A DNA stretch of 64,000 nucleotides from Candidatus Magasanikbacteria bacterium CG11_big_fil_rev_8_21_14_0_20_39_34 (GCA_002787355.1 PCWN01000007.1:315552-379551), one strand, 5' to 3'; positions 2,711-25,640 are shown, counted from the first letter of the stretch. Notes: generated from the sequence alone by a model not told the origin. Numbers and translations: made by a program.

Positions 2711-3166
2711 ATGAATGATCTCTTCGTTTTTTTAGAATCACAAAAACTGATCACACTCTCACCAAAAAGTAGTGAACCTTGGATTGCAAACGCATTTTAT
2801 GGAGTTACTCCGGATTGTACATTCTATTTTGTCTCCAGTACAGAAACAAAACACAGCCAACAAATCCTTCAAGATGGTACTGTTGCATTTAACATAGCCT
2901 GGTATAATCCAAACAACCATACCGACCGAAAAGCAGTACAAGGTGTTGGAACCTGTATGATAGCAAGCACACAAGAAGAAATTGAACTTGGGGTATCACT
3001 CCATAACTCACGTTTTCCAGAATTTGCAAAACGCATTACAAAGGAATGGATAGAAGATGACGCAAATTCCGGAAAAATATGGATTCTTAAACCAAGTTTC
3101 ATAAAATTTTGGAATGACGAGTTGTACAAGGATGATGAAAGTAAAGAATTTACCTTTGAAAAATAA
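2711..3166 (+). CDS. Pyridoxamine 5'-phosphate oxidase-like (FMN-binding split-barrel) protein
   Basis: About 150 aa of general PNPOx-like character. The start at 2711 was chosen because it abuts the upstream stop; the ORF track extends it to 2558. A terminator follows. Confidence 0.4.
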   Translation: MNDLFVFLESQKLITLSPKSSEPWIANAFYGVTPDCTFYFVSSTETKHSQQILQDGTVAFNIAWYNPNNHTDRKAVQGVGTCMIASTQEEIELGVSLHNSRFPEFAKRITKEWIEDDANSGKIWILKPSFIKFWNDELYKDDESKEFTFEK

Positions 3167-3192
3167 AATGCCTTTCTCAGGCATTTTTTATT
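3166..3192 (+). terminator. Rho-independent terminator (atgcc-N8-ggcat + T6)
   Basis: A GC stem with a TTTTTT run lies directly after the stop at 3166. It forms the left edge of the GC-rich islet. Confidence 0.6.
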
Positions 3193-9319: not shown

Positions 9320-9904
9320 ATGAAAAGATGTAGCTGGGTGTCTTTGGATCCACTCTATATTCAATATCACGATAAAGAATGGGGCGTTCCCATTTTTCAG
9401 GACAGAAAACTCTTTGAACTTCTTATCCTAGAAGGAGCTCAAGCAGGTCTCTCTTGGTTTACCGTACTCAAAAAGAGAAAAAATTATCAAAAAGCCTTTG
9501 ATAATTTTAACTACAAAAAAATAGCCCTCTACTCTAAAAAACAGGAGCAAGCACTCCTAAAAAATGAAGGGATAATCCGTAACAAGTTAAAGATTTCATC
9601 CACCATTAAAAATGCTCAAGTTTTTCTGGATATTCAGAAGGAATTTGGAAGTTTTCATAATTATCTTTGGGGTTATGTCCAGGGGAAACCTCTTCAAAAC
9701 AAAAGAAAAAGTACACGTGAAATTCCAGCATCCACTCCTCTTTCCGATACCATATCACGTGATCTCAAAAAGAGAGGTATGAACTTTGTGGGATCTACCA
9801 TCATCTATGCTTATCTACAAGCAATAGGTATTGTGAATGACCACGAAGTAAGCTGCTTTCGATATAAACAATTAAAAAATAGCAAAACAGAAATTATTAG
9901 ATAA
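9320..9904 (+). CDS. tag: DNA-3-methyladenine glycosylase I
   Basis: Tag family hallmarks: CSWVSLDPLYIQYHDKEWGVP, EGAQAGLSW, and CFRY near the C-terminus. Confidence 0.8.
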   Translation: MKRCSWVSLDPLYIQYHDKEWGVPIFQDRKLFELLILEGAQAGLSWFTVLKKRKNYQKAFDNFNYKKIALYSKKQEQALLKNEGIIRNKLKISSTIKNAQVFLDIQKEFGSFHNYLWGYVQGKPLQNKRKSTREIPASTPLSDTISRDLKKRGMNFVGSTIIYAYLQAIGIVNDHEVSCFRYKQLKNSKTEIIR

Positions 9905-10518: not shown

Positions 10519-10520
10519 GT

Positions 10521-13106
10521 ATGTCCTTTTTTCTTGTTAATTTCACCCTTTCTTCATCTAACCTTGCAAACGCGCAAACAGTTCTTCGTGATCCACTCAC
10601 TTTGAACCTCATTATCTTAGCAGGAATAGTTATTCTCTTTTTGACTCTTCTCTTTTTGCTTAGATCAATCCTCCATGCTTCAGCACGACAAAAAAGAATT
10701 TTTGATCGTGTTATACTGCAGGTTTTAGTACCAAAGGAAAGAAAATCTGAAGGACAAGGTGGTCAAGTTGGTCAAGAAGACCGGCTTGAGCATATCAAAG
10801 AAGAAGTTGGAATTACTGAAACCTTTCTTTCTACCATTGCAGGAATTAAATCCCAACGAGGCTTTATCCGTTGGCTTACCGGATCCAATGATTACTTTTC
10901 TTTTGAGATTGTAGCTAAAAATGGTCTTATCTATTTTTATATTGATACACCAAAAAAGAAAAAGAATCTCATTGAACAACAAGTACATGCCCAATTCCCC
11001 TATGCGCAAATTGATCAAATGATAGACTATAACCTTTTTGAAAAAGACAGTACCGTGGTAGGAGGATATCTCACCACAACAAACAAAGAATTTCTTCCTA
11101 TAAAAACCTACAAGGATCTTGATTCTGATCCCATGGCATCCATCCTGAACTCTCTTGCAAAAATTACTGGGAATGCACAAGGTTCTGCCGCGGTTCAATA
11201 CGTCGTGCGAAGTGCGTCAAAGAGTTGGAGAAGAAAAGGAGCATCAGTAGTTCGTGAAGTAAAAAAAGGAGAAAAATTTGAAAATGTCCTAAACGCATCT
11301 TCTTTTGGAAAAATTTTTAGTACTCTTTTTAAAGAACTCGGAGAATTGGCAAGCCCCAAAAAGAATGACCCAACGGATAAAGAAGAAAAATATCAGCTTT
11401 CTTCCATGGAAGAAGAAATGCTCAAAAAGATTGAAGAAAAACTTACCAAAGGTGGATTAAGCATCACCGTTCGCATCCTCAGTGTATCCAATAATACAGA
11501 AACTGCACAGATCAACCTCGATAACCTTATTAACTCTTTTTCGCAGCTTAATCTATACCGGTTTGGAAATAGTTTTCAAGCCGTTATCCCACGAAACCAA
11601 ACAAAACTCATTCGTGATTTTATTTACAGAACTTTTGACGAAAAACGAAAAATTCTCCTCAATACTGAAGAGTTTTCTTCTATATGGCATCTTCCACTCC
11701 ACTCTACCGAAACACCAAATATCAAATGGCTTGGTGGTCGCAAATCCCCTCCTCCCCCAAACCTTCCCAAAGAAGGCCTCCTTATGGGTCATATTCCATA
11801 CCGTAGTACCGATACCCAAGTGTTCATGAAAGAGGCAGATAGAAGACGCCATCTCTATATCATTGGAAAGTCTGGTTCCGGAAAATCCGTCCTGATTTCA
11901 AACCTTGCTATACAAGACATTCAAAATAATAAGGGTGTCTGTGTTGTAGACCCTCATGGAGATCTGGTAGAAGATATCCTTGGACATATTCCCAAACACA
12001 GAGTTGATGATGTTATCGTATTTAACCCTTCTGATCTTGAACGACCTATTGGGCTCAATATGCTTGAAGCAAGGAGTGATGACCAAAAAGACTTTGCTGT
12101 TCAAGAAATGATTGGAATTTTTTATAAGCTCTTTCCACCAGAAATGATTGGTCCAATGTTTGAGCACCAAATGAGAAATGTGATGCTTACCCTTATGGCA
12201 GATTTGGAGAATCCTGGAACAGTTATTGATATTCCCCGTATGTTTACCGATGACTCGTATGTAAAACAATATCTCGTAAAATTAAAAGATCCGGTGGTCC
12301 GTGCCTTCTGGGAAAAAGAAATGGCCAAAACCAGTGATTTTCATAAATCAGAAATGCTTGGATATCTGGTTTCAAAAGTAGGACGTTTTGTTGGAAATGA
12401 AATGATGAGAAACATCATGGGACAACAAAGATCCGGATTTAGTTTCCGGGATGCTATGGACCAACAAAAGATTCTTCTGGTAAATTTGGCAAAAGGGACA
12501 ACCGGAGAAGTAAATTCCAAGCTTATTGGTCTTATTGTAGTGGCAAAATTACAAATGGCAGCTATGGGTCGTGCAGACATGGATGAAAGTATGCGTAAAG
12601 ATTTTTATCTCTATATAGATGAGTTCCAAAACTTTACCACCGACTCTATTTCCACTATTCTTTCTGAGGCTCGTAAATATCGCCTTGATCTTATTATTGC
12701 CCATCAATATATGGGCCAGCTTATAGATGACAAAGGAAAATCAGATATCAAAGATGCCGTTCTTGGAAACGTTGGTACCATGTGTGTAGGACGTATTGGT
12801 CCAGAAGATGCAGATATTCTTGCAAAGGAGTTTGCTCCCACTTTTGGTGCCTATGACCTCCTCAATCCACCGCAGTACTCCTACTATGCAAAAGTACTCA
12901 TAGATAATGAAACGACCCGTCCTTTTAATATGCTCGCCTATCCGCCCAAGGAAGGAAACCGAGAACTCGCCAAGGCTATAAAAGAGCTCTCACGCTTGAA
13001 ATATGGGCGTGATAGACGTATAGTAGAGGCAGAGATACTTGAACGAACAAAATTGGGACAATCTGAAGGCGCCGCAAAGACAGATATGATAGAAGCTTCA
13101 CTCTAA
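10521..13106 (+). CDS. Membrane-anchored FtsK/HerA/TrwB-superfamily P-loop ATPase (type IV coupling protein VirD4/TraD/TraG-like)
   Basis: N-terminal TM helix. Walker A IIGKSGSGKS is followed by VVDPHGD. Walker B is LYIDEFQNF. SEARKYRLDLIIAHQYMGQL resembles the TrwB/TraD EARKFG...QS..QL motif. Confidence 0.6.
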   Translation: MSFFLVNFTLSSSNLANAQTVLRDPLTLNLIILAGIVILFLTLLFLLRSILHASARQKRIFDRVILQVLVPKERKSEGQGGQVGQEDRLEHIKEEVGITETFLSTIAGIKSQRGFIRWLTGSNDYFSFEIVAKNGLIYFYIDTPKKKKNLIEQQVHAQFPYAQIDQMIDYNLFEKDSTVVGGYLTTTNKEFLPIKTYKDLDSDPMASILNSLAKITGNAQGSAAVQYVVRSASKSWRRKGASVVREVKKGEKFENVLNASSFGKIFSTLFKELGELASPKKNDPTDKEEKYQLSSMEEEMLKKIEEKLTKGGLSITVRILSVSNNTETAQINLDNLINSFSQLNLYRFGNSFQAVIPRNQTKLIRDFIYRTFDEKRKILLNTEEFSSIWHLPLHSTETPNIKWLGGRKSPPPPNLPKEGLLMGHIPYRSTDTQVFMKEADRRRHLYIIGKSGSGKSVLISNLAIQDIQNNKGVCVVDPHGDLVEDILGHIPKHRVDDVIVFNPSDLERPIGLNMLEARSDDQKDFAVQEMIGIFYKLFPPEMIGPMFEHQMRNVMLTLMADLENPGTVIDIPRMFTDDSYVKQYLVKLKDPVVRAFWEKEMAKTSDFHKSEMLGYLVSKVGRFVGNEMMRNIMGQQRSGFSFRDAMDQQKILLVNLAKGTTGEVNSKLIGLIVVAKLQMAAMGRADMDESMRKDFYLYIDEFQNFTTDSISTILSEARKYRLDLIIAHQYMGQLIDDKGKSDIKDAVLGNVGTMCVGRIGPEDADILAKEFAPTFGAYDLLNPPQYSYYAKVLIDNETTRPFNMLAYPPKEGNRELAKAIKELSRLKYGRDRRIVEAEILERTKLGQSEGAAKTDMIEASL

Positions 13107-13136
13107 TATTAAAAATGTTTTAAAATAAAAACAAAT

Positions 13137-17734: not shown

Positions 17735-17805
17735 TCGGGGATCGTCTAATGGTAGGACTCCAGGTTCTGGTCCTGGCTATCGGGGTTCGAGTCCCTGTCC
17801 CCGAG
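17735..17805 (+). tRNA. tRNA-Gln (anticodon CTG)
   Basis: Hand-folded cloverleaf. Acceptor stem TCGGGGA/TCCCCGA with U1:A72 and G73. 4-bp D-stem with a GG loop. Anticodon stem CCAGG/CCTGG with loop TTCTGGT. T-arm CGGGG-TTCGAGT-CCCTG. Confidence 0.85.
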
Positions 17806-17820
17806 CAAGCAAGGGTGAGC

Positions 17821-17845
17821 AGGCACGAGAGTGCCTGTTTTCTTG
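17821..17845 (+). terminator. Hairpin + T-run after the tRNA
   Basis: aggcac-gaga-gtgcct followed by gttttcttg. Confidence 0.5.
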
Positions 17846-17863
17846 TATTCTGAGCCATTTTTT

Positions 17864-17879
17864 AGAAGTTCGGAAGTTG
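17864..17879. repeat. Direct repeat copy 1 (AGAAGTTCGGAAGTTG), candidate att-like island boundary
   Basis: It matches 24918-24933 at 15 of 16 positions, with 13 of 13 in the core. It sits about 60 nt past the tRNA-Gln 3' end. Confidence 0.4.
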
Positions 17880-17930
17880 CGTTTAGCTTGGGCATCCATT
17901 CAGCCAAAAACTGATATGCTGGTGTCGCTG

Positions 17931-18254
17931 TTACGTGTACTTCGCGTTCAAGCGTGAGTTCCATATGAGAGAAAAAACGGGACAATAAGAGACGTTTTTC
18001 TTCGGGTGAGGTTTGTCTTCTCGTGCGTTAAATGCGAGCCTGTGAATCTCTAGCCCTACTTCGTAGTAGTTATCGACCCGATCTTCGAGATTTTCAAGCT
18101 GTTTCAAAATAGAGCGTTTCTCACGTTTGTAATCATCCGCTTTTCTCTTGTAATACTCGTCGGTTATCACGCCGTCCAGCCTGTCCTCGTACATTTTGTC
18201 GAGACGACCCTCGAGCCTCTCTATAGCCTCGTTGAGCTGTTTGCGTGATGTCAT
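17931..18254 (-). pseudogene. Recombinase-like remnant (coiled-coil segment resembling the C-terminal region of large serine recombinases); likely a decayed integrase
   Basis: 107 aa with LEGRLDKMYEDRLDGVITDEYYKRKADDYKREKRSILKQLENLE. It has no catalytic domain. The surrounding roughly 900 bp has about 50% GC and only fragmentary ORFs. Confidence 0.3.
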
Positions 18255-18343
18255 GGAATAATCCGTCTTGTCTTGGTTCTTTTCCTTGAGAGCCTCGTTA
18301 TGTGATTGTTTATACAGACACCAGCGAGAAGAGAGGTCAAGCG

Positions 18344-18517
18344 TTATCGTTTATGCTTGGTCTTGTCGACCAATGTAAACTTCTTCGCTTCACCTGCATA
18401 CGGCGGAGCTGTTTCACCTTTGGTCAACGTGATTTCACGTCTAGTTCCTGACGGTCGATATTGACCCGAAACAGGTGCTTTGTGCCCCGTCGATGTTGTT
18501 ACCTTTTTGTTAGGCAT
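18344..18517 (-). CDS. Small basic hypothetical ORF (57 aa) in the island's decayed region
   Basis: Hand-translated MPNKKVTTSTGHKAPVSGQYRPSGTRREITLTKGETAPPYAGEAKKFTLVDKTKHKR. It falls below the ORF-track length cutoff. Confidence 0.2.
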   Translation of the reverse strand: MPNKKVTTSTGHKAPVSGQYRPSGTRREITLTKGETAPPYAGEAKKFTLVDKTKHKR

Positions 18518-18697
18518 ACATTTTCGGTTAGCCGATGAATAAAACGGGTAGCGTCCGACTTTTACTCCGCCCCGCGGAGTAAAAACCTCAATAGATTTGC
18601 ACTCCGGAGGGGGTAAAGTGAGCTGATCCGAGAGTATTCAAAGGGGGCTGAAATTATCTCGCTGGCATCTATATAAACAACTGATTGGAATGAACGC

Positions 18698-19297
18698 TTA
18701 CAAATTTCTGATGACCTTTACGACCACACCCTGCACGTCTACCTGTCTATGATACGTTGGCTCGTATTTCCCATTGGCCGGCTGTAGCCGTATCCTGTTC
18801 TGCTCTTGGTATATCCGCTTTAATGTCGCCTCGCTGTCTTCGAGAAGTGCAACGACCGTATCGCCATTGTCCGCACTCTTTTGCTGTTTTGCGATGATAA
18901 TATCTCCGTCGAGGATACCGTCTTCAATCATGGAATCGCCTTTGGCTCTTAGAGCGAATAGCCTACCTCGCAGAGCGTACTCCCTGGCGACTTTGACTGT
19001 TGTATCGTCGTATTCCTCAAGAGCTTCAATGGGTGAACCGCATGAAATAGTCCCTTTTATGGGAACCTCGATATAATCCGTGCGTTTTTTGGGCAGTGAG
19101 AGGCCTCTTTCTCGACGGTCGTACCGTTTGAGGAAGCCTTTATCCACCAAAGCCGAAACACGGTCGTGTACGGTTGATATGGCGGATAATTCAAAATGAT
19201 CTCGGATGTCATCGAAAGAGGGGGCGTACCCGTTCTGGTCGATGTACGAGGTGATGTAGTCGAGCGTTTCTCGTTGTCTTTTCGTCAGCGTGTTCAT
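18698..19297 (-). CDS. lexA: LexA-family transcriptional repressor (wHTH + S24 autopeptidase)
   Basis: N-terminal LexA DNA-binding domain (LTKRQRETLDYITSYIDQNGYAPSFDDI). Catalytic Ser in AKGDSMIEDGI and Lys in ATLKRIY. An Ala-Gly cleavage-site-like RAKG is present. The start is taken at MNTL. Confidence 0.8.
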   Translation of the reverse strand: MNTLTKRQRETLDYITSYIDQNGYAPSFDDIRDHFELSAISTVHDRVSALVDKGFLKRYDRRERGLSLPKKRTDYIEVPIKGTISCGSPIEALEEYDDTTVKVAREYALRGRLFALRAKGDSMIEDGILDGDIIIAKQQKSADNGDTVVALLEDSEATLKRIYQEQNRIRLQPANGKYEPTYHRQVDVQGVVVKVIRNL

Positions 19298-19346
19298 GTG
19301 GTATATTATAACCGAAGAAAATCCGAATAGCAAATCCGAAAAAGTG

Positions 19347-19375
19347 TGGACAAGTGCTCAAAAAAGGAGTATCAT
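19347..19375 (+). promoter_or_regulatory. Putative sigma70-type promoter for the mod operon (TGGACA-N17-TATCAT), inside the divergent lexA-mod intergenic region
   Basis: Hexamers read directly from the sequence. The adjacent direct repeat AAATCCGAA x2 at about 19321-19346 is a possible operator. Confidence 0.3.
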
Positions 19376-19405
19376 ATAAATCGTTAGACAAAACCCGTAC
19401 TAATT

Positions 19406-20953
19406 ATGCCTACACTCAACTGGATCGGTAAAGAGGCAGTAGTCAATCATGACAAAGAAGTCCCTTTCAAGCTCCTCAAAAAAGTAAAATCTCAATCAGT
19501 AGGTGAAAATTCACACAATCTGATTATCCATGGCGATAACCTAGAGGCATTAAAAGCATTAATGCCTTATTATGTTGGAAAAATAAAATGTATCTACATT
19601 GATCCCCCTTACAACACTGGAAACGAGGGGTGGGTTTATAACGATAAGGTTAATTCGCCAAAAATAAAAAAGTGGCTTGGAAAGGTTGTAGGTAATGAAC
19701 CTACAGACCTCTGTAGACATGATAAGTGGTTGTGCATGATGTATCCACGCTTAAAACTTTTGCGTGATCTTTTGCGTGATGATGGTGCTATTTTTATATC
19801 TATTGATGACAACGAACATTGTCATTTGAAAATGATTTTAGATGAAATGTTTGGCATTGAAAATTTTGTTACAAACATCATTTGGCAAAAAAAATATACA
19901 CAAAGTAATGATGCAAAATATTTTTCATCTACGCATGATTTTATAGTGTGCTATGCAAAAAATATTAAGAATGCGGATTTCAAAATAAATCTTTTAGAAA
20001 GAACGGAGAAACAGAACGCACGTTACAAAAATTTGGATAATGACCCACGGGGGCCATGGATGACACAGCCCCTACATGCAAAAAGTGGAAATGACAAAAC
20101 CTATACGTTTACATTTCAAAATGGTGTTAAATGGAAGCCCCCAGCAGGTACTTTTCCGAGATATAGTTTAGACACTTTGCGGAAGGCTGAGATGAACGGT
20201 GAAATATGGTTTGGAGCAAAAGGGACTGCCGTGCCACGTCTTAAAAAATACTTGAATGAAATGAAAGACGGCGTTATACCTAAAACAATTTGGCTTTATG
20301 ATGAGGTTGGTAGTAATGACGATGCAAAAAAAGAATTAAAGAATGTTTTTGACGACAATCCCTTTGCGACACCAAAGCCAACAAAACTATTGAAAACAAT
20401 TTTTAAAATTTCATCAGGGAAAGACGATATTGTATTAGATTCATTTGCTGGATCAGGCACTGCTGGACATTCAATTTTGGATCTCAATAAAGAAGACGGC
20501 GGAAAAAGAAAATTTATTCTTGTAGAAATGGAAGATGATATTGCTAAAAATATCACCGCCGAAAGAATAAGACGAGTGTGCAAAACAAATGAATATTCAG
20601 ATGGTTTTGAATATTGTGAGCTTACAAAACCACTTTTTGATGAAAATGGTCAAATAGAGAAAGAGTGTGACTTCAATCAGTTTGCCACATATATCTATTT
20701 TACCGAAACGCAGACAAACATCGACAAGGCAAAAATCAATAAGAATTTTATCGGTGAATACAGCGACACACATTTTTATCTTATCTACAAAGAGAAAGGC
20801 AAAAATGTTCTTACCAAAACTTTTTTACGACAGCTCAAAAAAGACGGTGCGAGAAAAATCGTTTATGCTGATCGCTGTATGGTTGACGATGATATTCTTG
20901 AAGAATACAACATTGTATTTAAGCAAATCCCTTACGAGGTAAAAGTTTACTAA
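19406..20953 (+). CDS. mod: Type III restriction-modification system methyltransferase (Mod), N6-adenine beta-class
   Basis: Motif IV DPPY (CIYIDPPYNTG) precedes motif I FAGSGTAGHS. The N-terminus is Mod-like (IIHGDNLEALKAL). Confidence 0.8.
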   Translation: MPTLNWIGKEAVVNHDKEVPFKLLKKVKSQSVGENSHNLIIHGDNLEALKALMPYYVGKIKCIYIDPPYNTGNEGWVYNDKVNSPKIKKWLGKVVGNEPTDLCRHDKWLCMMYPRLKLLRDLLRDDGAIFISIDDNEHCHLKMILDEMFGIENFVTNIIWQKKYTQSNDAKYFSSTHDFIVCYAKNIKNADFKINLLERTEKQNARYKNLDNDPRGPWMTQPLHAKSGNDKTYTFTFQNGVKWKPPAGTFPRYSLDTLRKAEMNGEIWFGAKGTAVPRLKKYLNEMKDGVIPKTIWLYDEVGSNDDAKKELKNVFDDNPFATPKPTKLLKTIFKISSGKDDIVLDSFAGSGTAGHSILDLNKEDGGKRKFILVEMEDDIAKNITAERIRRVCKTNEYSDGFEYCELTKPLFDENGQIEKECDFNQFATYIYFTETQTNIDKAKINKNFIGEYSDTHFYLIYKEKGKNVLTKTFLRQLKKDGARKIVYADRCMVDDDILEEYNIVFKQIPYEVKVY

Positions 20954-20957
20954 TCCT

Positions 20958-23222
20958 ATGCAACTAAAAACCTATCAGCAACAAGCCCTTGAGACGTTGC
21001 AAAACTACCTCGAGGAAATGAAGAAAGTCGGCTCAAAATATGCGTTCATGGGCACGACTGATACGCCGTACAATAGTGAGTATTTTGGTGAAACACCTTT
21101 TGTCTGTATCAAGATTCCGACCGGTGGTGGAAAGACAATGGTCGGTTGTCATGCAACGGTTGAAATCATGCGTAAAGCCCTTGCTTATAAAATGGAGCGC
21201 GGTATTGTAATGTGGTTTGTACCGTCAGAAGCAATCAAGACACAGACATTGCGTAAATTCAAAGACCGAAATGACTGGCACAGACGTATCCTTGATGAGA
21301 GTTTTGAAAATGGCGTGCGTATTTTTTCAAATGAAGAAGCACTCCGTATTCGCAAAGAAGATGTTGACGACAACCTCTGTATTATCATTTCAAGCCTTGA
21401 GGCGTTCCGAAAAGAAAAGAAGCTCCAAAACAAATACAAGGTTTATCAGGAGAACGGTGCACTTCTTAGCTTTTTTGAACATATCAAGAGTGAAGACGGG
21501 TTAGAAAAAGATGAAGAAGGAACGGTTATCAATTCACTTGCAAACGTCATCCGCATGGATAATCCACTTATCGTTATTGATGAGGGGCATAAAACACAAA
21601 CAAAACTCTCTATCGACTTTTTGAGCGACCTCAATCCGTCCTTTATTGTGGAATATACCGCTACTCCTCGCAAGGGTAGTAATATACTCGTGGATATTTC
21701 TGCGTCTGCTCTCAAGGAAGAAAACATGGTGAAAATCCCTATTGTCCTTGAAAGTAGTAACCAATGGGGCAATGCCATTGTACGAGGTATGGAGCAGCGG
21801 GATGAGCTGGAAAAAGAGGCAAAGAAATTAAAATCCGAGTATATTCGACCGATTGCTCTTATTCAAGCACAGCCACATAGCAAGACACAAAAGAACGTTA
21901 CGGTAGAAGAAGTCAAAGACTTTCTTCTCAGGGCGAAAATCCCCGAGGATCAAATCGCAACTAAAACATCCAATACAAATGAACTCGAGGGCGTAGACTT
22001 GTTTAGTAAAAAGTGTAAAATTCGTTATATCATCACCGTAAGCGCGCTTGCTGAGGGTTGGGATTGTTCCTTTGCGTATGCGCTTATCTCTGTTGCGAAC
22101 GTGGGATCAAAAATTGCTGTTGAGCAGATTATCGGACGTATCTTACGTATGCCATACGCCGAGAAAAAAACTATCGAAAGCCTCAATCGTTCATATATTT
22201 TTGCGTCGGCAAAAAACTTTAACGAGGCGGCAACTCAGATTATCTCCGGCTTAGAAGCTAACGGATACAGTAAACACGACTTGGTAAGTAGATCAAATAA
22301 AGACGAGAAATACGAACTTGAAGTAGAGCGAACAGTAGACGAAGACTTTGCTATACCAATGATGAGCCTAGACGGTGACAAACTCTCGTTTGAAGATCTT
22401 GTAGGAGAAAAATTTGAACTTGCAAAACAAAACCCTGACTTTGACTTTGATATTCACTGGGATAGCGACGGTCGCGCGATTATTGATATTGAAGGTGACA
22501 AATGGACGAAAGGACGACAACTAATGCTACACCTCACATACAGGGATAAAAACTTCTCTCGAGAAGAATTGACCCAATGGCTCGACAAAAAGCTCCGTTT
22601 TACACTCCTTGATAAGCAGGACAAAGTGGCATTTATTAAAAAAGTTATTGACGGACAGCTCAAGCAGAAATCTCTTGCCGACTTATCAGTCAATCGTTAT
22701 CTATTCCGTGATCGTCTTGATAAAGCAATCAACGATATTTTAGAGGAATACGCAAAGAAACAATTTGACGCACAAATGAAAAAAGGAGAGGTGAAACTTA
22801 AGAAGTTTGAAGCGTTCCCTGCCTCTATCATACTCGGGCAAGAAATACCGCAGTCGTTCAACAAAAGCTACTACGAAAAAGTAGACAAACTCAATAAAGA
22901 AGAATTGAACTTTATCGAACGCCTTGACCTAGATACGTTGCCAAACATAGAATTTTGGATTAGAAACCGAGAAAAAAGAGATCCATTCTATATTCAAGGC
23001 TGGCGTAAAGGAAAATTCTATCCCGACTTTATCGTAAAAACAAAAAAAGGAAATATTGTTGCGCTTGAATGGAAAGGTGAAGACCGTATATCAAATGACG
23101 ATACAGAATACAAAGTTGCTATTGGTGAAACGTGGCAGGATTTGAGCAAGGGTAAATTACACTTCTTTCTTGTTCATAATGGGAATGTGGAGGAGGTTTT
23201 GAATGAACTAAAACAAAAATAA
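20958..23222 (+). CDS. res: Type III restriction enzyme Res subunit (SF2 helicase + PD-(D/E)xK nuclease)
   Basis: Walker A PTGGGKT, DEAH-like VIDEGHK, and a C-terminal PDF...EWKGE nuclease-like motif. It starts 4 nt after mod. Confidence 0.8.
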   Translation: MQLKTYQQQALETLQNYLEEMKKVGSKYAFMGTTDTPYNSEYFGETPFVCIKIPTGGGKTMVGCHATVEIMRKALAYKMERGIVMWFVPSEAIKTQTLRKFKDRNDWHRRILDESFENGVRIFSNEEALRIRKEDVDDNLCIIISSLEAFRKEKKLQNKYKVYQENGALLSFFEHIKSEDGLEKDEEGTVINSLANVIRMDNPLIVIDEGHKTQTKLSIDFLSDLNPSFIVEYTATPRKGSNILVDISASALKEENMVKIPIVLESSNQWGNAIVRGMEQRDELEKEAKKLKSEYIRPIALIQAQPHSKTQKNVTVEEVKDFLLRAKIPEDQIATKTSNTNELEGVDLFSKKCKIRYIITVSALAEGWDCSFAYALISVANVGSKIAVEQIIGRILRMPYAEKKTIESLNRSYIFASAKNFNEAATQIISGLEANGYSKHDLVSRSNKDEKYELEVERTVDEDFAIPMMSLDGDKLSFEDLVGEKFELAKQNPDFDFDIHWDSDGRAIIDIEGDKWTKGRQLMLHLTYRDKNFSREELTQWLDKKLRFTLLDKQDKVAFIKKVIDGQLKQKSLADLSVNRYLFRDRLDKAINDILEEYAKKQFDAQMKKGEVKLKKFEAFPASIILGQEIPQSFNKSYYEKVDKLNKEELNFIERLDLDTLPNIEFWIRNREKRDPFYIQGWRKGKFYPDFIVKTKKGNIVALEWKGEDRISNDDTEYKVAIGETWQDLSKGKLHFFLVHNGNVEEVLNELKQK

Positions 23223-23235
23223 CAGACAAAATTGT

Positions 23236-24132
23236 ATGTCATGGGAAGATACATTTAAATCGTGGGGGGCTGCCCCAGGTACAACAGAACAGCAAAAAAT
23301 GGAAAATGCTGAGAATGCTGTTCGTAAGGCAATTAACGCTGAAACTGTGCTTAAAAACATGGATATTTCGATTATCCCGCAGGGCTCATACAAGTCTCGA
23401 ACGAATGTAAGGCAAGATAGTGATGTGGATATTTGTATTTGTCTGAACTCTACTTTTTTTCCAAGATATCCGATTGGTAAGACAAAAGAAGATTATGGCA
23501 ATATCGATGGCAGTATAAACTTTGATGAGTATAGAAATCTGGTGCAAAGAGCCTTGCAGAATTATTTTGGAACAGAATATGTTACACCTGGCAATAAAGC
23601 ATTTGATATACACTCAAATACATCTAGAGTTGATGCTGATGTTGTACCTGCATTTGCCTACCGGTATTATCATGGAGAGGGTGAAAACGATTATCAACAA
23701 CCACTCGGCATCGCTTTTCTGACAAATAACGAGAAAAAAAAGATAATAAATTGGCCTCATCATACTTATGATAACGGCAAAGAAAAACAGCAACGTACAG
23801 GACAACGCTATAAAAAAGTGGTTAGAATCATCAAAAAATTGAGAAATAAAATGCAAGAAGAAAGTATTTCAGAATCACAGGATATAGCATCTTTTTTGAT
23901 AGAAAGTATGGTTTGGAATGCACCAGATAGTCATTTCAATCGTGATACTTATACTGCAGACGTGCGTGCTGTTCTGGCATATTGTTTTAATGAAACTTTA
24001 CCCAATGGGAGTCATGGAAAGCTTGGGGAGGTAAATGATTTTAAGTATTTATTTGGGGATCACCAGCCATGGTCAAGAGAACGAGCTCATAAATTTTTTT
24101 CTTCAGCCTGGGATTATTTAGGATTTGAATAA
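23236..24132 (+). CDS. cGAS/DncV-like nucleotidyltransferase (CD-NTase / SMODS-type)
   Basis: GS-x11-DVD motif (QGSYKSRTNVRQDSDVDICI) plus a third acidic residue in DADVVPAF. Its size is about 300 aa. It starts 13 nt after res. Confidence 0.65.
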   Translation: MSWEDTFKSWGAAPGTTEQQKMENAENAVRKAINAETVLKNMDISIIPQGSYKSRTNVRQDSDVDICICLNSTFFPRYPIGKTKEDYGNIDGSINFDEYRNLVQRALQNYFGTEYVTPGNKAFDIHSNTSRVDADVVPAFAYRYYHGEGENDYQQPLGIAFLTNNEKKKIINWPHHTYDNGKEKQQRTGQRYKKVVRIIKKLRNKMQEESISESQDIASFLIESMVWNAPDSHFNRDTYTADVRAVLAYCFNETLPNGSHGKLGEVNDFKYLFGDHQPWSRERAHKFFSSAWDYLGFE

Positions 24133-24134
24133 AT

Positions 24135-24752
24135 ATGGAAAAAGTTGATAGGAAAATAAGAGCATATTCTCAGGTGATTACTTTTTTAGTAGTATGGTTT
24201 GTTGTTGTTATTCTGACTAACTCATACTCTACGACTGACTTGCTCCCCGCCATTAAAAGAATCCCTTTAGCTATATCAATTTATGTAATTCTTGCAAGTA
24301 TTTTTGTAAAGTGGATATGGCGTTGGAAAATTTTTCAAGGTTGGTTAATAAAAGTGCCTGATCTACAAGGCACATGGGAAGGTGAATTAAAAAGTGATTG
24401 GATAAATCCCGAAACAGGAAAAGGTATTGATCCAATTCCTATGCTATTAGTGATAAAACAAACCTTTACTTCCATAAATTGTACATTGATGACAAAAGAA
24501 TCTACCAGCTATAGTACGACTGCGGACTTTGAATATGTTCATGGAGGTGACGCTGTTTATCTAACATATAATTATACAAACCGGCCTAAAGCAACTATAA
24601 GAGATAGAAGTGCTATACACGACGGTGCTGCAATTTTGAAAGTAATTAAGGATCCTGAACGCAGACTTGAGGGTGAATATTGGACAAGTAGAAAAACACG
24701 GGGCGATATTAGTATACATTTTGGTTCAAAGGATTTGGCTGAAAGATTTTAA
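24135..24752 (+). CDS. 2TM membrane effector (Cap15-like / SLATT-like) partnered with the CD-NTase
   Basis: Two N-terminal TM helices and an approximately 130-aa soluble beta-rich C-terminal domain. It starts 2 nt after the NTase stop. Confidence 0.55.
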   Translation: MEKVDRKIRAYSQVITFLVVWFVVVILTNSYSTTDLLPAIKRIPLAISIYVILASIFVKWIWRWKIFQGWLIKVPDLQGTWEGELKSDWINPETGKGIDPIPMLLVIKQTFTSINCTLMTKESTSYSTTADFEYVHGGDAVYLTYNYTNRPKATIRDRSAIHDGAAILKVIKDPERRLEGEYWTSRKTRGDISIHFGSKDLAERF

Positions 24753-24917
24753 GAGTTATGTACGATAAAATTTGGTATTTTTACCCCCTCAAATTCTCAA
24801 AAAAAATATATAGTAGCGAGAGTAAAATTCTTTGCTAATACGCAAACACCTGAATATGCCGTTGTGCTCGGCTCTTTAGATGAAAGACTCACCCCATTTC
24901 AATCGACTCTCTAAAAG

Positions 24918-24933
24918 AAAAGTTCGGAAGTTG
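24918..24933. repeat. Direct repeat copy 2 (AAAAGTTCGGAAGTTG)
   Basis: Partner of 17864-17879. It lies just before a bidirectional terminator. Confidence 0.4.
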
Positions 24934-24952
24934 TCCAAGTAGCAGAGCAAAA

Positions 24953-24984
24953 AAACTCAAACTCGTAATGGTTTGAGTTTTTTG
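24953..24984. terminator. Bidirectional terminator hairpin (aaactcaaac-N8-gtttgagttt + T-run)
   Basis: Read directly from the sequence. It closes the island on the right. Confidence 0.55.
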
Positions 24985-25022: not shown

Positions 25023-25640
25023 ATGAAAAAGTATTTCTTTATTATGGCATTTGCACTTATTGGATTTGCCTATGCAGGAACTGCTTCTGCACAAATGGGT
25101 ATGATGAATACCAATGGCTCTGTGCATAATGAAGCCATAGACGCAATGATTTTACAAATAACAGAAAGCCAAAATATTACTGATCCAACACAGATAGACT
25201 GTAGTAAAGTTTCCAATGAACAATTTGAAAGTCTGGGAGATGCGTTCATGCAAACCATGGCAAGCAATGACAAGCAACATGAAGCAATGGACTCAATGAT
25301 GGGTGGGGAAGGTTCTGAAAGCCTCACACAAGCACACAGAAATATGGGGCAATCCTACCTTGGCTGTAGCACAGGACGAACTGCAGTAGCCATGCCTATG
25401 ATGGCAAATAATGGAATGATGCAAGGTATGCAATTCCAAGGAATTGAACAACGATTCCCACATCAAAATACAAATATGAACTGGGACAATATGAACCGGG
25501 GAAATATGAAATGGCATGGACAGGGAACATACGCTTTTTCAGCCTTACATATTATTTGTGCAGTGATTACCACGCTTCTTGTCTGGACACTCCTTGTAGT
25601 ATGGATTCTTACTCTTCTTAAGGGACTCAGGAAAAAATAG
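25023..25640 (+). CDS. Secreted, C-terminally membrane-anchored Met-rich protein (possible Cu/metal-binding)
   Basis: Signal peptide. Many Met clusters (MGMMNTNG, MDSMMGG, MPMMANNGMMQGMQFQG). A C-terminal TM helix. Confidence 0.5.
   Translation: MKKYFFIMAFALIGFAYAGTASAQMGMMNTNGSVHNEAIDAMILQITESQNITDPTQIDCSKVSNEQFESLGDAFMQTMASNDKQHEAMDSMMGGEGSESLTQAHRNMGQSYLGCSTGRTAVAMPMMANNGMMQGMQFQGIEQRFPHQNTNMNWDNMNRGNMKWHGQGTYAFSALHIICAVITTLLVWTLLVVWILTLLKGLRKK

Follow-up and report, generated by a model that had tools for sequence, protein, structure and literature searches.

A defence operon beside a tRNA-Gln gene of Candidatus Magasanikbacteria is probably the retained cargo of a decayed filamentous prophage

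We analysed 64,000 nucleotides (hereafter the window) of Candidatus Magasanikbacteria bacterium CG11_big_fil_rev_8_21_14_0_20_39_34 (GCA_002787355.1 PCWN01000007.1:315552-379551), in which a segment of ~7 kb adjoining a tRNA-Gln gene carries a LexA-type repressor, a Type III restriction-modification (R-M) system and a cyclase-effector pair of a cyclic-oligonucleotide-based anti-phage signalling system (CBASS). Our data indicate that this interval is probably the immobilised relic of an integrated filamentous (inovirus-like) Patescibacteria prophage that has kept its R-M and CBASS cargo. An earlier note, made from the sequence of this DNA, had described a defence island. Profile searches confirmed all of its gene calls in the segment, with ARAGORN, TIGR00498, PADLOC and a comparison with a related locus bearing out the tRNA-Gln, the recombinase remnant, LexA and the Type III mod and res genes. 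Comparison with related loci supports and refines the island reading: the backbone is what remains of an inovirus-like prophage, its two ends joined by deletion of the core. The features of the segment are as follows (L with a number denotes another locus or contig; aa, amino acids).

17735-17806, + strand: tRNA-Gln, anticodon CTG (ARAGORN; Rfam tRNA, 55.1 bits), the integration landmark
17817-17840, + strand: terminator-like hairpin between tRNA-Gln and the attachment-site (att) core (terminator scan)
17866-17879, + strand: left copy of the 14-bp direct repeat AAGTTCGGAAGTTG, candidate att core
17880-18297, - strand: large serine integrase remnant, last ~180 codons, frameshifted near 18003-18012, catalytic N-terminal two thirds gone
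17931-18254, - strand: recombinase-tail open reading frame (ORF), 107 aa
18297/18298: deletion junction
18344-18517, - strand: conserved phage gene, 57 aa (identity 100% in L026/L027, 63% in L030; also in L117 and L119)
18560-18584: perfect hairpin with an 11-bp stem, read from the sequence, between lexA and the 57-aa gene
18698-19297, - strand: lexA, full-length LexA-type repressor, 199 aa from the ATG at 19297
19305-19340, - strand: predicted lexA promoter (-10 at 19305-19310, -35 at 19328-19333; promoter scan)
19345-19375, + strand: predicted divergent cargo promoter TGTGGACAA (-35 TGGACA at 19347-52, 17-nt spacer, -10 TATCAT at 19370-75)
19406-20953, + strand: mod, Type III methyltransferase (PADLOC MTase_III, 4.4e-187 over the full length)
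20958-23222, + strand: res, Type III restriction subunit, 754 aa (PADLOC REase_III, 8e-89; Pfam ResIII, 7.6e-14)
23236-24132, + strand: CBASS CD-NTase of CdnE type (PADLOC cyclase, 6.3e-119)
24135-24752, + strand: Cap15 effector (Pfam Cap15_CD_rec, 2e-21, above cutoff; PADLOC 2TM, 4.9e-78, full length)
24920-24933, + strand: right copy of AAGTTCGGAAGTTG, candidate att core
24950-24983: bidirectional terminator hairpin I18 (13-nt arms, 100% complementary; 8-nt loop; A6 and T6 flanks)

The backbone, probably two joined ends of a prophage

We read the backbone as two joined ends of a prophage because one part matches L026, the adjoining part matches the integrase tail of L030, and the core genes are absent. 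Window positions 19340-18298 are 95% identical in DNA over 1,043 bp to L026 8978-10016 (and likewise to L027), a match that covers lexA and the 57-aa gene and ends at 18298, before the start of a 269-aa gene. Homology to the L030 integrase tail starts at 18297-18299, which places the deletion junction at 18297/18298. In a tblastn search with the 551-aa integrase of L030, residues 371-469 fell at 18299-18003 with 66% identity and residues 471-547 at 18012-17782, in another frame, with 56% identity; the DNA of the tail is 67% identical to L030. The deletion comprises ~8 kb, from the 269-aa gene through the Zot and Rep genes to about codon 370 of the integrase.

We found that the related loci share a gene order. 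LexA is 95% identical in the contig group L026-L029 and 69% identical in L030-L032, and in both groups the genes run lexA, a 57- or 69-aa gene, a 269-279-aa gene, small ORFs, a 559-571-aa gene, an 81-aa gene, Zot (PF05707), Rep (REP_ORF2-G2P, PF23343), a 55-aa gene and a large serine recombinase of 531-551 aa as integrase, with a tRNA-Asn on the opposite strand at the integrase end. Searches of L030 against PHROGs returned a Zot-like/M13 protein I (phrog_197, 1e-18; also phrog_1675), a rolling-circle initiator (phrog_3419, 1e-29) and the integrase (phrog_95, 2e-83). Judged by these genes, the L030 core is the gene set of an integrated filamentous phage.

Zot, Rep and small coat-size genes are present in the homologous loci L026, L030, L033 and L117-L125. 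They are absent from the window element, which makes it a relic rather than a prophage; the whole 64 kb was found to lack homologues of the 279-aa, 564-aa, Zot and Rep genes. The decayed recombinase-like remnant of the earlier note is what is left of the integrase, an identity settled by comparison with the L030 integrase and by six-frame reading. Its 107-aa ORF matched the PHROG 95 integrase weakly (E 0.0011) and gave no match in tblastn against 50,697 phage records and none in Pfam or PADLOC. The resolvase catalytic domain and the recombinase domain are missing from the window integrase, with no Pfam match to either, and by its sequence the gene is dead. With the core deleted and the integrase dead, the relic would be unable to replicate, assemble or excise.

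We propose that a single deletion at 18297/18298 would have taken the ~8-kb phage core together with the integrase catalytic domain, and that the integrase tail would have been frameshifted afterwards. What survived would be what is useful or harmless to the host, namely a LexA-type repressor that regulates itself and the cargo operon of four genes.

Between lexA and the 57-aa gene, the intergenic sequence (18518-18697) is conserved in L026 and L034; L030 and L033 share part of it. The hairpin within it (18560-18584) might serve as an origin or packaging signal of the phage, or as a second operator.

Boundaries and attachment site

The repeat AAGTTCGGAAGTTG occurs exactly twice in the window, where 0.05 copies are expected, and no further copy was found in the window with one mismatch allowed. 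Its left copy is located at the 3' end of the integrase ORF, in a position homologous to the L030 core CATTTCCGAAC. In L030/L031 this core recurs 263 bp upstream of lexA and then 6.6 kb further out, so that the L030 repeat brackets the interval from lexA through the integrase, with the repeated core outside lexA. Three direct copies of the TTCCGAAC core are found in L030 at 3105-3170, 9738-9748 and 19195-19272 (the same in L031), and the 34-bp hairpin segment beside the tRNA is duplicated in both. The prophage lies between the second and third copies; the 6.6-kb segment between the first and second encodes PAP2, a P-type ATPase, DsbA/DsbB, thioredoxin and DUF305 proteins. It looks as though a cargo island lacking an integrase and the phage had inserted in tandem at a single att site.

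In the window and in L030/L031 the far junction has the same layout, which consists of a hairpin, TGCTC, 15 nt and TTCCGAAC (alignment A2), and TGCTC is the 3' end of both tRNAs (Gln and Asn). Two crossover models fit: within the TTCCGAAC core, or at TGCTC with the core as a subterminal repeat. The choice between them shifts the boundary by at most 70 bp on the left and at most 16 bp on the right, and the relic runs from ~17.81-17.88 kb to 24.93-24.95 kb. The hairpin at 17817-17840 is homologous to one beside tRNA-Asn at the integrase end of the L030/L031 prophage (alignment A1) and probably derives from the element. The bidirectional terminator that the earlier note placed at ~24.95 kb is indeed there, as a perfect 13-bp stem with A/T runs at 24950-24983; lying just outside the element, it is possibly the original terminator of tRNA-Gln. 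The tRNA-Gln is the sole tRNA of the 64-kb window, and an Rfam scan of 17-26 kb returned nothing besides it.

The locus in relatives and in the population

We compared the locus with seven loci of other Patescibacteria metagenome-assembled genomes that encode the C39-like protein found upstream of tRNA-Gln (40-51% identity). Five of the seven (46-51% identical) carry tRNA-Gln directly after the C39-like gene, and all five keep the order SWIB-dnaX-C39-tRNA-Gln. The contigs of four of the five reach folD, two of these four also showing GT2, and their tRNA-Gln-to-folD gaps measure 0.14, 0.84, 1.6 and 6.3 kb vs 8.95 kb in the window. LexA, Mod, Res, the nucleotidyltransferase and Cap15 are absent from the tRNA-Gln locus of all five. 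The comparison that the earlier note had proposed therefore came out in favour of its island layout, since no syntenic relative carries the same genes and the 14-bp repeat brackets the segment. The segment has the marks of a tRNA-linked island, being adjacent to a tRNA, flanked by direct repeats and absent from relatives, with only its backbone atypical in composition.

The earlier note had also taken both flanks as housekeeping; relatives share the synteny of dnaX, the C39-like gene and folD, and not that of the Met-rich and TspO genes. The relatives lack DoxX as well as the Met-rich and TspO genes found right of the element, so that conserved housekeeping sequence resumes on that side only at folD. 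The contents of the tRNA-Gln-folD interval are unrelated between relatives (L020 11060-17370, L021 10486-11271, L022 11199-12584): methyltransferase-like, kinase-like and aminotransferase-like ORFs fill it in L020, and in L019 it is only 136 bp long. The site is a spot of recurrent variation in the lineage.

Eighteen contigs of the same population, with identical flanking proteins, show 100% identity to the window wherever they align. When the proteins of the two flanking genes were looked up by exact match, every contig recovered was likewise 100% identical to the window, and the predicted attB (left flank, 14-bp core and right flank, 29 nt) had no exact match in metagenome contigs. The element appears fixed in the population, since all of these contigs that extend into the interval carry it and no empty site was found.

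Two observations concern contig ends within this population. Contigs L003, L006 and L008, from three independent assemblies (two Logan contigs from SRR62407xx runs and one from SRR5487654), all end at 17758, inside tRNA-Gln; this shared end may mark an assembly-graph branch, i.e., a strain variant that differs from the 3' half of the tRNA onward. In contig L012 (ENA), bases 1-256 are an unrelated AT-rich sequence joined to the window at 24187 within cap15, which replaces the first 52 bp (~17 codons) of the gene, and contig L013 begins at 24188, the same breakpoint. Either the assembly is chimeric here or cap15 is interrupted in a variant.

Cargo operon and cargo slot

We found that the Type III R-M system and the CdnE/Cap15 CBASS are ordinary members of known families. 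Mod matches Pfam N6_N4_Mtase (4.3e-38), the Type III Mod of PDB 6k0w (3e-66) and EcoP15I Mod (1e-48), and its translation shows DPPY and FAGSGT motifs. Res has TGGGKT and DEGH motifs in its superfamily 2 helicase part; its C-terminal nuclease-like region gave only a weak TnsA-like match (residues 683-723, E 0.0078) and a nuclease-like PDF...LEWK motif read by eye only, and a sequence search of Res against PDB found no match among solved structures. What the earlier note had called a cGAS/DncV-like nucleotidyltransferase (CD-NTase) and a protein with two transmembrane (TM) helices proved, by PADLOC, Pfam and PDB, to be a CBASS cyclase of CdnE type and Cap15. The cyclase matches a cyclic dipyrimidine nucleotide synthase (PDB 7x4f, 1.5e-69), with GS...DxD and the third Asp aligned. 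Cap15 has two N-terminal TM helices and a cyclic-dinucleotide receptor barrel and matches the Cap15 of PDB 7n34 (1.2e-5); its Cap15_TM Pfam match (1.1e-4, 23.3 bits) is below the 28.2-bit cutoff.

The four genes mod, res, cdnE and cap15 lie on one strand with gaps of 4, 13 and 2 bp, and they are the only genes between lexA and the right repeat. Cap2, Cap3, HORMA and TRIP13 genes are absent from this stretch, which has no spare ORF of fitting size. The R-M and CBASS operon appears intact. The CBASS pair might be transcribed on its own from a promoter-like site within the last part of res (22924-22953). Our account of how the cargo would act rests on family membership, full-length profile matches and intact motifs. 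Mod would methylate host DNA and Res would cut unmethylated incoming DNA; on infection CdnE would make a cyclic dinucleotide, probably a dipyrimidine, which Cap15 would bind, oligomerising, disrupting the membrane and aborting the infection.

We next consider the position that the operon occupies. In all eight loci that carry this lexA (the window and seven close homologues), the gene next to lexA is divergent from it and the content of the slot varies, with R-M genes in five of the eight.

Window: Type III R-M and CdnE/Cap15
L033: Type II R-M (1e-132, 1e-133) and a 1,052-aa protein
L034: Tsp45I-type Type II R-M, Shedu SduA (5e-15) and PDC-S57 (2e-65)
L123: methyltransferase and REase_II (3e-16), then an IS3 element
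L125: Type I methyltransferase (2e-129), contig cut
L124: 1,300-aa GNAT protein
L026 and L030: thioredoxin, DsbA, DsbB and metal-ATPase genes

A Fic-domain gene of L124 (10524-11474; PADLOC SoFic, 4.5e-46) between the 271-aa gene and the coat-size genes marks a second cargo position in the phage family.

Composition separates the cargo from the backbone. In the backbone, lexA has a GC content of 49.0%, the 57-aa gene 46.6% and the integrase tail 46.4%; in the cargo, Res has 40.4%, CdnE 36.9%, and Mod and Cap15 35.1% each, with a window mean of 38.7%. The mosaic reported in the earlier note is thus real. Since the GC of the R-M and CBASS genes matches that of the host, the outlier is the lexA/remnant piece (46-49%), and we rejected the R-M and CBASS genes (35-40%, near the window mean) as compositional outliers; the foreign-looking part is the prophage backbone.

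We then asked whether relic and cargo arrived together. Two independent insertions would be an unlikely alternative history, in which the prophage relic came to tRNA-Gln and a Mod-Res-CdnE-Cap15 cassette that was never phage-borne arrived separately, as its own att-bearing unit or via illegitimate recombination. Several findings weigh in this direction and against a relic that carried its own cargo. The cargo has 35-40% GC vs 46-49% in the backbone, and the closest CdnE/Cap15 pairs (75-76% identity) stand alone elsewhere, apart from Type III R-M and from this phage; the cargo may therefore have been acquired separately. The closest pair (76%), in L115 (5566-8832 and 9001-10523), lies in another serine-recombinase island, near two large serine recombinases. 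The repeat of L030 lies only 263 bp upstream of lexA, and its 6.6 kb of redox and metal genes lie between two further cores, a layout that suggests tandem insertion at the same att site as an alternative route. Other points bear on the prophage reading more generally: the exact crossover is ambiguous between the TTCCGAAC core and TGCTC at the tRNA 3' end, the synteny relatives are distant (46-51% protein identity), all same-population contigs that extend into the interval show the element, and no empty site or circular junction was found. As no same-species empty site was found, we infer mobility from the repeats and the relatives; that the phage family forms virions is likewise something we infer.

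What speaks for a joint arrival is that the only two copies of the 14-bp repeat in the window enclose backbone and cassette together, that the cassette begins just past the TGTGGACAA promoter element, where relatives carry divergent cargo, and that no core-like sequence lies between lexA and mod. On balance we therefore favour a prophage relic that carried the operon in its cargo slot. The four-gene operon itself is a local fusion of two modules, given that the nearest CdnE/Cap15 pairs are stand-alone.

The L115 pair is divergent from a cluster of thioredoxin, DsbA and 188-aa genes that resembles the L030 cargo. Patescibacteria serine-recombinase elements seem to exchange the same cargo modules.

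LexA, its regulatory region and the remaining alternatives

The repressor passes the LexA model TIGR00498 with 173.5 bits (cutoff 110.95) and has the Pfam domains LexA_DNA_bind and Peptidase_S24. In PDB alignments with E. coli LexA, Ser (in GDSM) and Lys (in TLKR) are retained, and a Cys-Gly cleavage site stands at the position of Ala84-Gly85. An alternative start at TTG 19333 would give 211 aa.

We looked up the seven close LexA homologues (60-95% identity), and the phage module follows lexA in all six whose contig extends past the gene (L026, L030, L033, L123, L124 and L125). The seventh contig, L034, breaks off soon past lexA; the ~90 bp that it has beyond the gene are homologous to the backbone. 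With the phage Rep as query, six viral contigs of the family were found in IMG/VR; five have lexA at the head of the module (LexA 56-61% identical), three of the contigs beginning exactly at lexA, and the sixth, L121, is cut upstream of the 564-aa gene, with no lexA seen. A search of IMG/VR with LexA by peptide patterns gave no confirmed locus.

Could this lexA be the chromosomal SOS repressor of the host, with filamentous phages merely integrating beside it? The gene passes the LexA equivalog model with its self-cleavage residues retained, repeats similar to its candidate box precede distant lexA genes outside phages, and the gene always stands at the edge of the module, so that gene order alone cannot place it inside. 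We consider this explanation very unlikely all the same. The gene is absent from the tRNA-Gln-folD locus of the five tRNA-Gln-bearing relatives, and its 95% DNA identity to L026 goes with unrelated sequence on the other side. It moves with the module between tRNAs (tRNA-Gln in the window, tRNA-Asn in L030), the genes on its far side differ in every one of the eight loci, and the repeated L030 core lies outside it; these three findings together place lexA inside the element. The phage module was found at none of 80 lexA loci of 41-53% identity, including loci on contigs of 0.3-1.4 Mb. Taken together, these comparisons indicate that LexA is the phage family's own repressor and not an independent passenger.

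We found a candidate operator at the lexA promoter. CCGAA on the + strand at 19312-16, 19323-27 and 19336-40 forms TTCGG direct repeats that overlap the promoter, with a candidate box spanning 19312-19327 and a repeat period of 11 nt. TTCGG-N6-TTCGG abuts the lexA -10 in all seven family loci with upstream sequence and was found nowhere else in these seven loci on either strand; L026 has three TTCGG copies and the window has the third half-site. The looser form TTCG-N7-TTCG occurs within 130 nt upstream of 25 of 78 distant lexA genes (L035-L114), four of them with the exact TTCGG form, and many of these distant repeats share TTCGCCTGATTTTCG. The Gram-positive-type box GAAC-N4-GTTC was found in none of the 78 upstream regions. 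Elsewhere in the window TTCG-N7-TTCG occurs only once, inside res, with ~1.5 expected by chance. TTCGG-N6-TTCGG is thus probably the LexA box of this group, a candidate for autorepression. A direct-repeat LexA box may be widespread in these lineages.

Just past the box, the sequence that supplies the -35 TGGACA of the divergent cargo promoter reads TTGTCCACA on the lexA strand; the window, L033, L034 and L117 have it exactly, and L026 and L030 almost exactly. The box overlaps the lexA promoter and ends 7 bp upstream of the cargo -35. Since it ends outside the cargo promoter, constitutive expression of the cargo is likelier than direct LexA control, and we downgraded direct repression of the defence operon by LexA. 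The operon is most likely expressed constitutively, as cargo of the lysogenic phase. By binding TTCGG-N6-TTCGG, LexA would cover its own promoter; RecA activation would trigger its self-cleavage at Cys-Gly.

That the interval holds no discrete mobile element, but only a fast-evolving tRNA-Gln-folD region with a coincidental 14-bp repeat, is extremely unlikely: the interval does differ in every relative (0.14-6.3 kb, unrelated genes) and another exact 14-mer repeat (D12) arises by chance inside the 9-kb interval itself, yet the left copy is homologous in position to the independently repeated L030/L031 core, the geometry of the far junction is common to L030, and the integrase remnant abuts a repeat of which 0.05 copies are expected by chance.

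Neighbouring genes

Just outside the element, beside DoxX and TspO, lies one further gene.

25023-25640: Met-rich protein, 205 aa, secreted or membrane-anchored

It had no family match. Its methionine motifs (MGMMN, MDSMMGG and MPMMANNGMMQGMQ) suggest copper binding. Upstream of the dnaX region, an 861-aa DUF87/TrwB-TraG-like ATPase (~10520-13110; L002 3232-5817) may be the remnant of a DNA-transfer system and is unrelated to the prophage.

Significance and comparison with known systems

Patescibacteria, the Candidate Phyla Radiation, have tiny genomes and are thought to hold few defence systems; to our knowledge, little is known of the route by which they acquire them. The window and 13 related loci provide a concrete vehicle, a LexA-headed family of serine-integrase filamentous phages with a fixed cargo slot. 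The slot is often filled with R-M, Shedu or CBASS genes, and the phage can decay with the defence operon staying behind. The parts are ordinary and the vehicle is the informative result. In addition, TTCGG-N6-TTCGG is a testable candidate LexA box for the group. A more far-reaching reading, which we hold to be rather unlikely, is that Patescibacteria filamentous phages, as a whole family, captured a LexA orthologue that recognises the direct-repeat box of host LexA and use the adjoining promoter region as a socket for defence cassettes, and that in relics such as that of the window the host domesticated repressor and socket as an immunity module linked to DNA damage. If so, the phage-derived LexA would join or provide SOS control, LexA cleavage would tune R-M and CBASS, and filamentous phages would be a main delivery route of immune systems in reduced-genome symbionts.

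Temperate phages and satellites such as P2 and P4 have a fixed backbone position that takes interchangeable defence cassettes expressed in the lysogen. The vehicle in the window differs from these hotspots in being a single-stranded DNA filamentous phage of a reduced-genome episymbiont lineage, with the slot beside a LexA-type promoter. As in chromosomal LexA, the repressor has two domains, a Ser-Lys dyad, a self-cleavage site and a candidate box over its own promoter; in contrast to it, the gene stands at the head of a prophage module and travels together with the module, the cleavage site has Cys-Gly, as UmuD does, instead of Ala-Gly, and the box is a direct repeat with an 11-nt period.

The cargo compares closely with characterised systems. 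Like type I CBASS (CdnE, PDB 7x4f, 7x4c and 7x4a; Cap15, 7n34), the window has a two-gene cyclase-effector pair with a 2-bp gap, an aligned catalytic GS...DxD...D, Cap15_CD_rec with two TM helices, and no Cap2, Cap3 or HORMA; in contrast, the pair trails a Type III R-M system by 13 bp, apparently in one operon. Like EcoP15I-type Type III R-M, mod precedes res, Mod matches and Res has a ResIII helicase domain, whereas Res is short (754 aa) and has no sequence match to solved structures.

The 2019 survey of inoviruses lists the Candidate Phyla Radiation among hosts and serine recombinases among genes, and makes no mention of LexA (PMC6813254). In Vibrio, hypervariable regions (pHVRs) of CTX-I inoviruses carry anti-phage systems that include R-M and CBASS, and the same study reports degraded relics that have lost phage functions and kept their cargo (PMC12715192). 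The family described here likewise consists of filamentous prophages with a variable defence slot, and the window shows the degraded state. The differences lie in the host (Patescibacteria), in integration (a serine integrase beside a tRNA vs XerCD/dif with XafT), in the place of the slot (upstream of and divergent from the repressor vs between zot and xafT), in the repressor (a full-length LexA orthologue vs RstR) and in the cargo (5.3 kb in the window, with R-M dominating the slot of the family, vs ~1.9 kb on average). Our data therefore extend the Vibrio finding to a very different lineage with another integration and regulation module.

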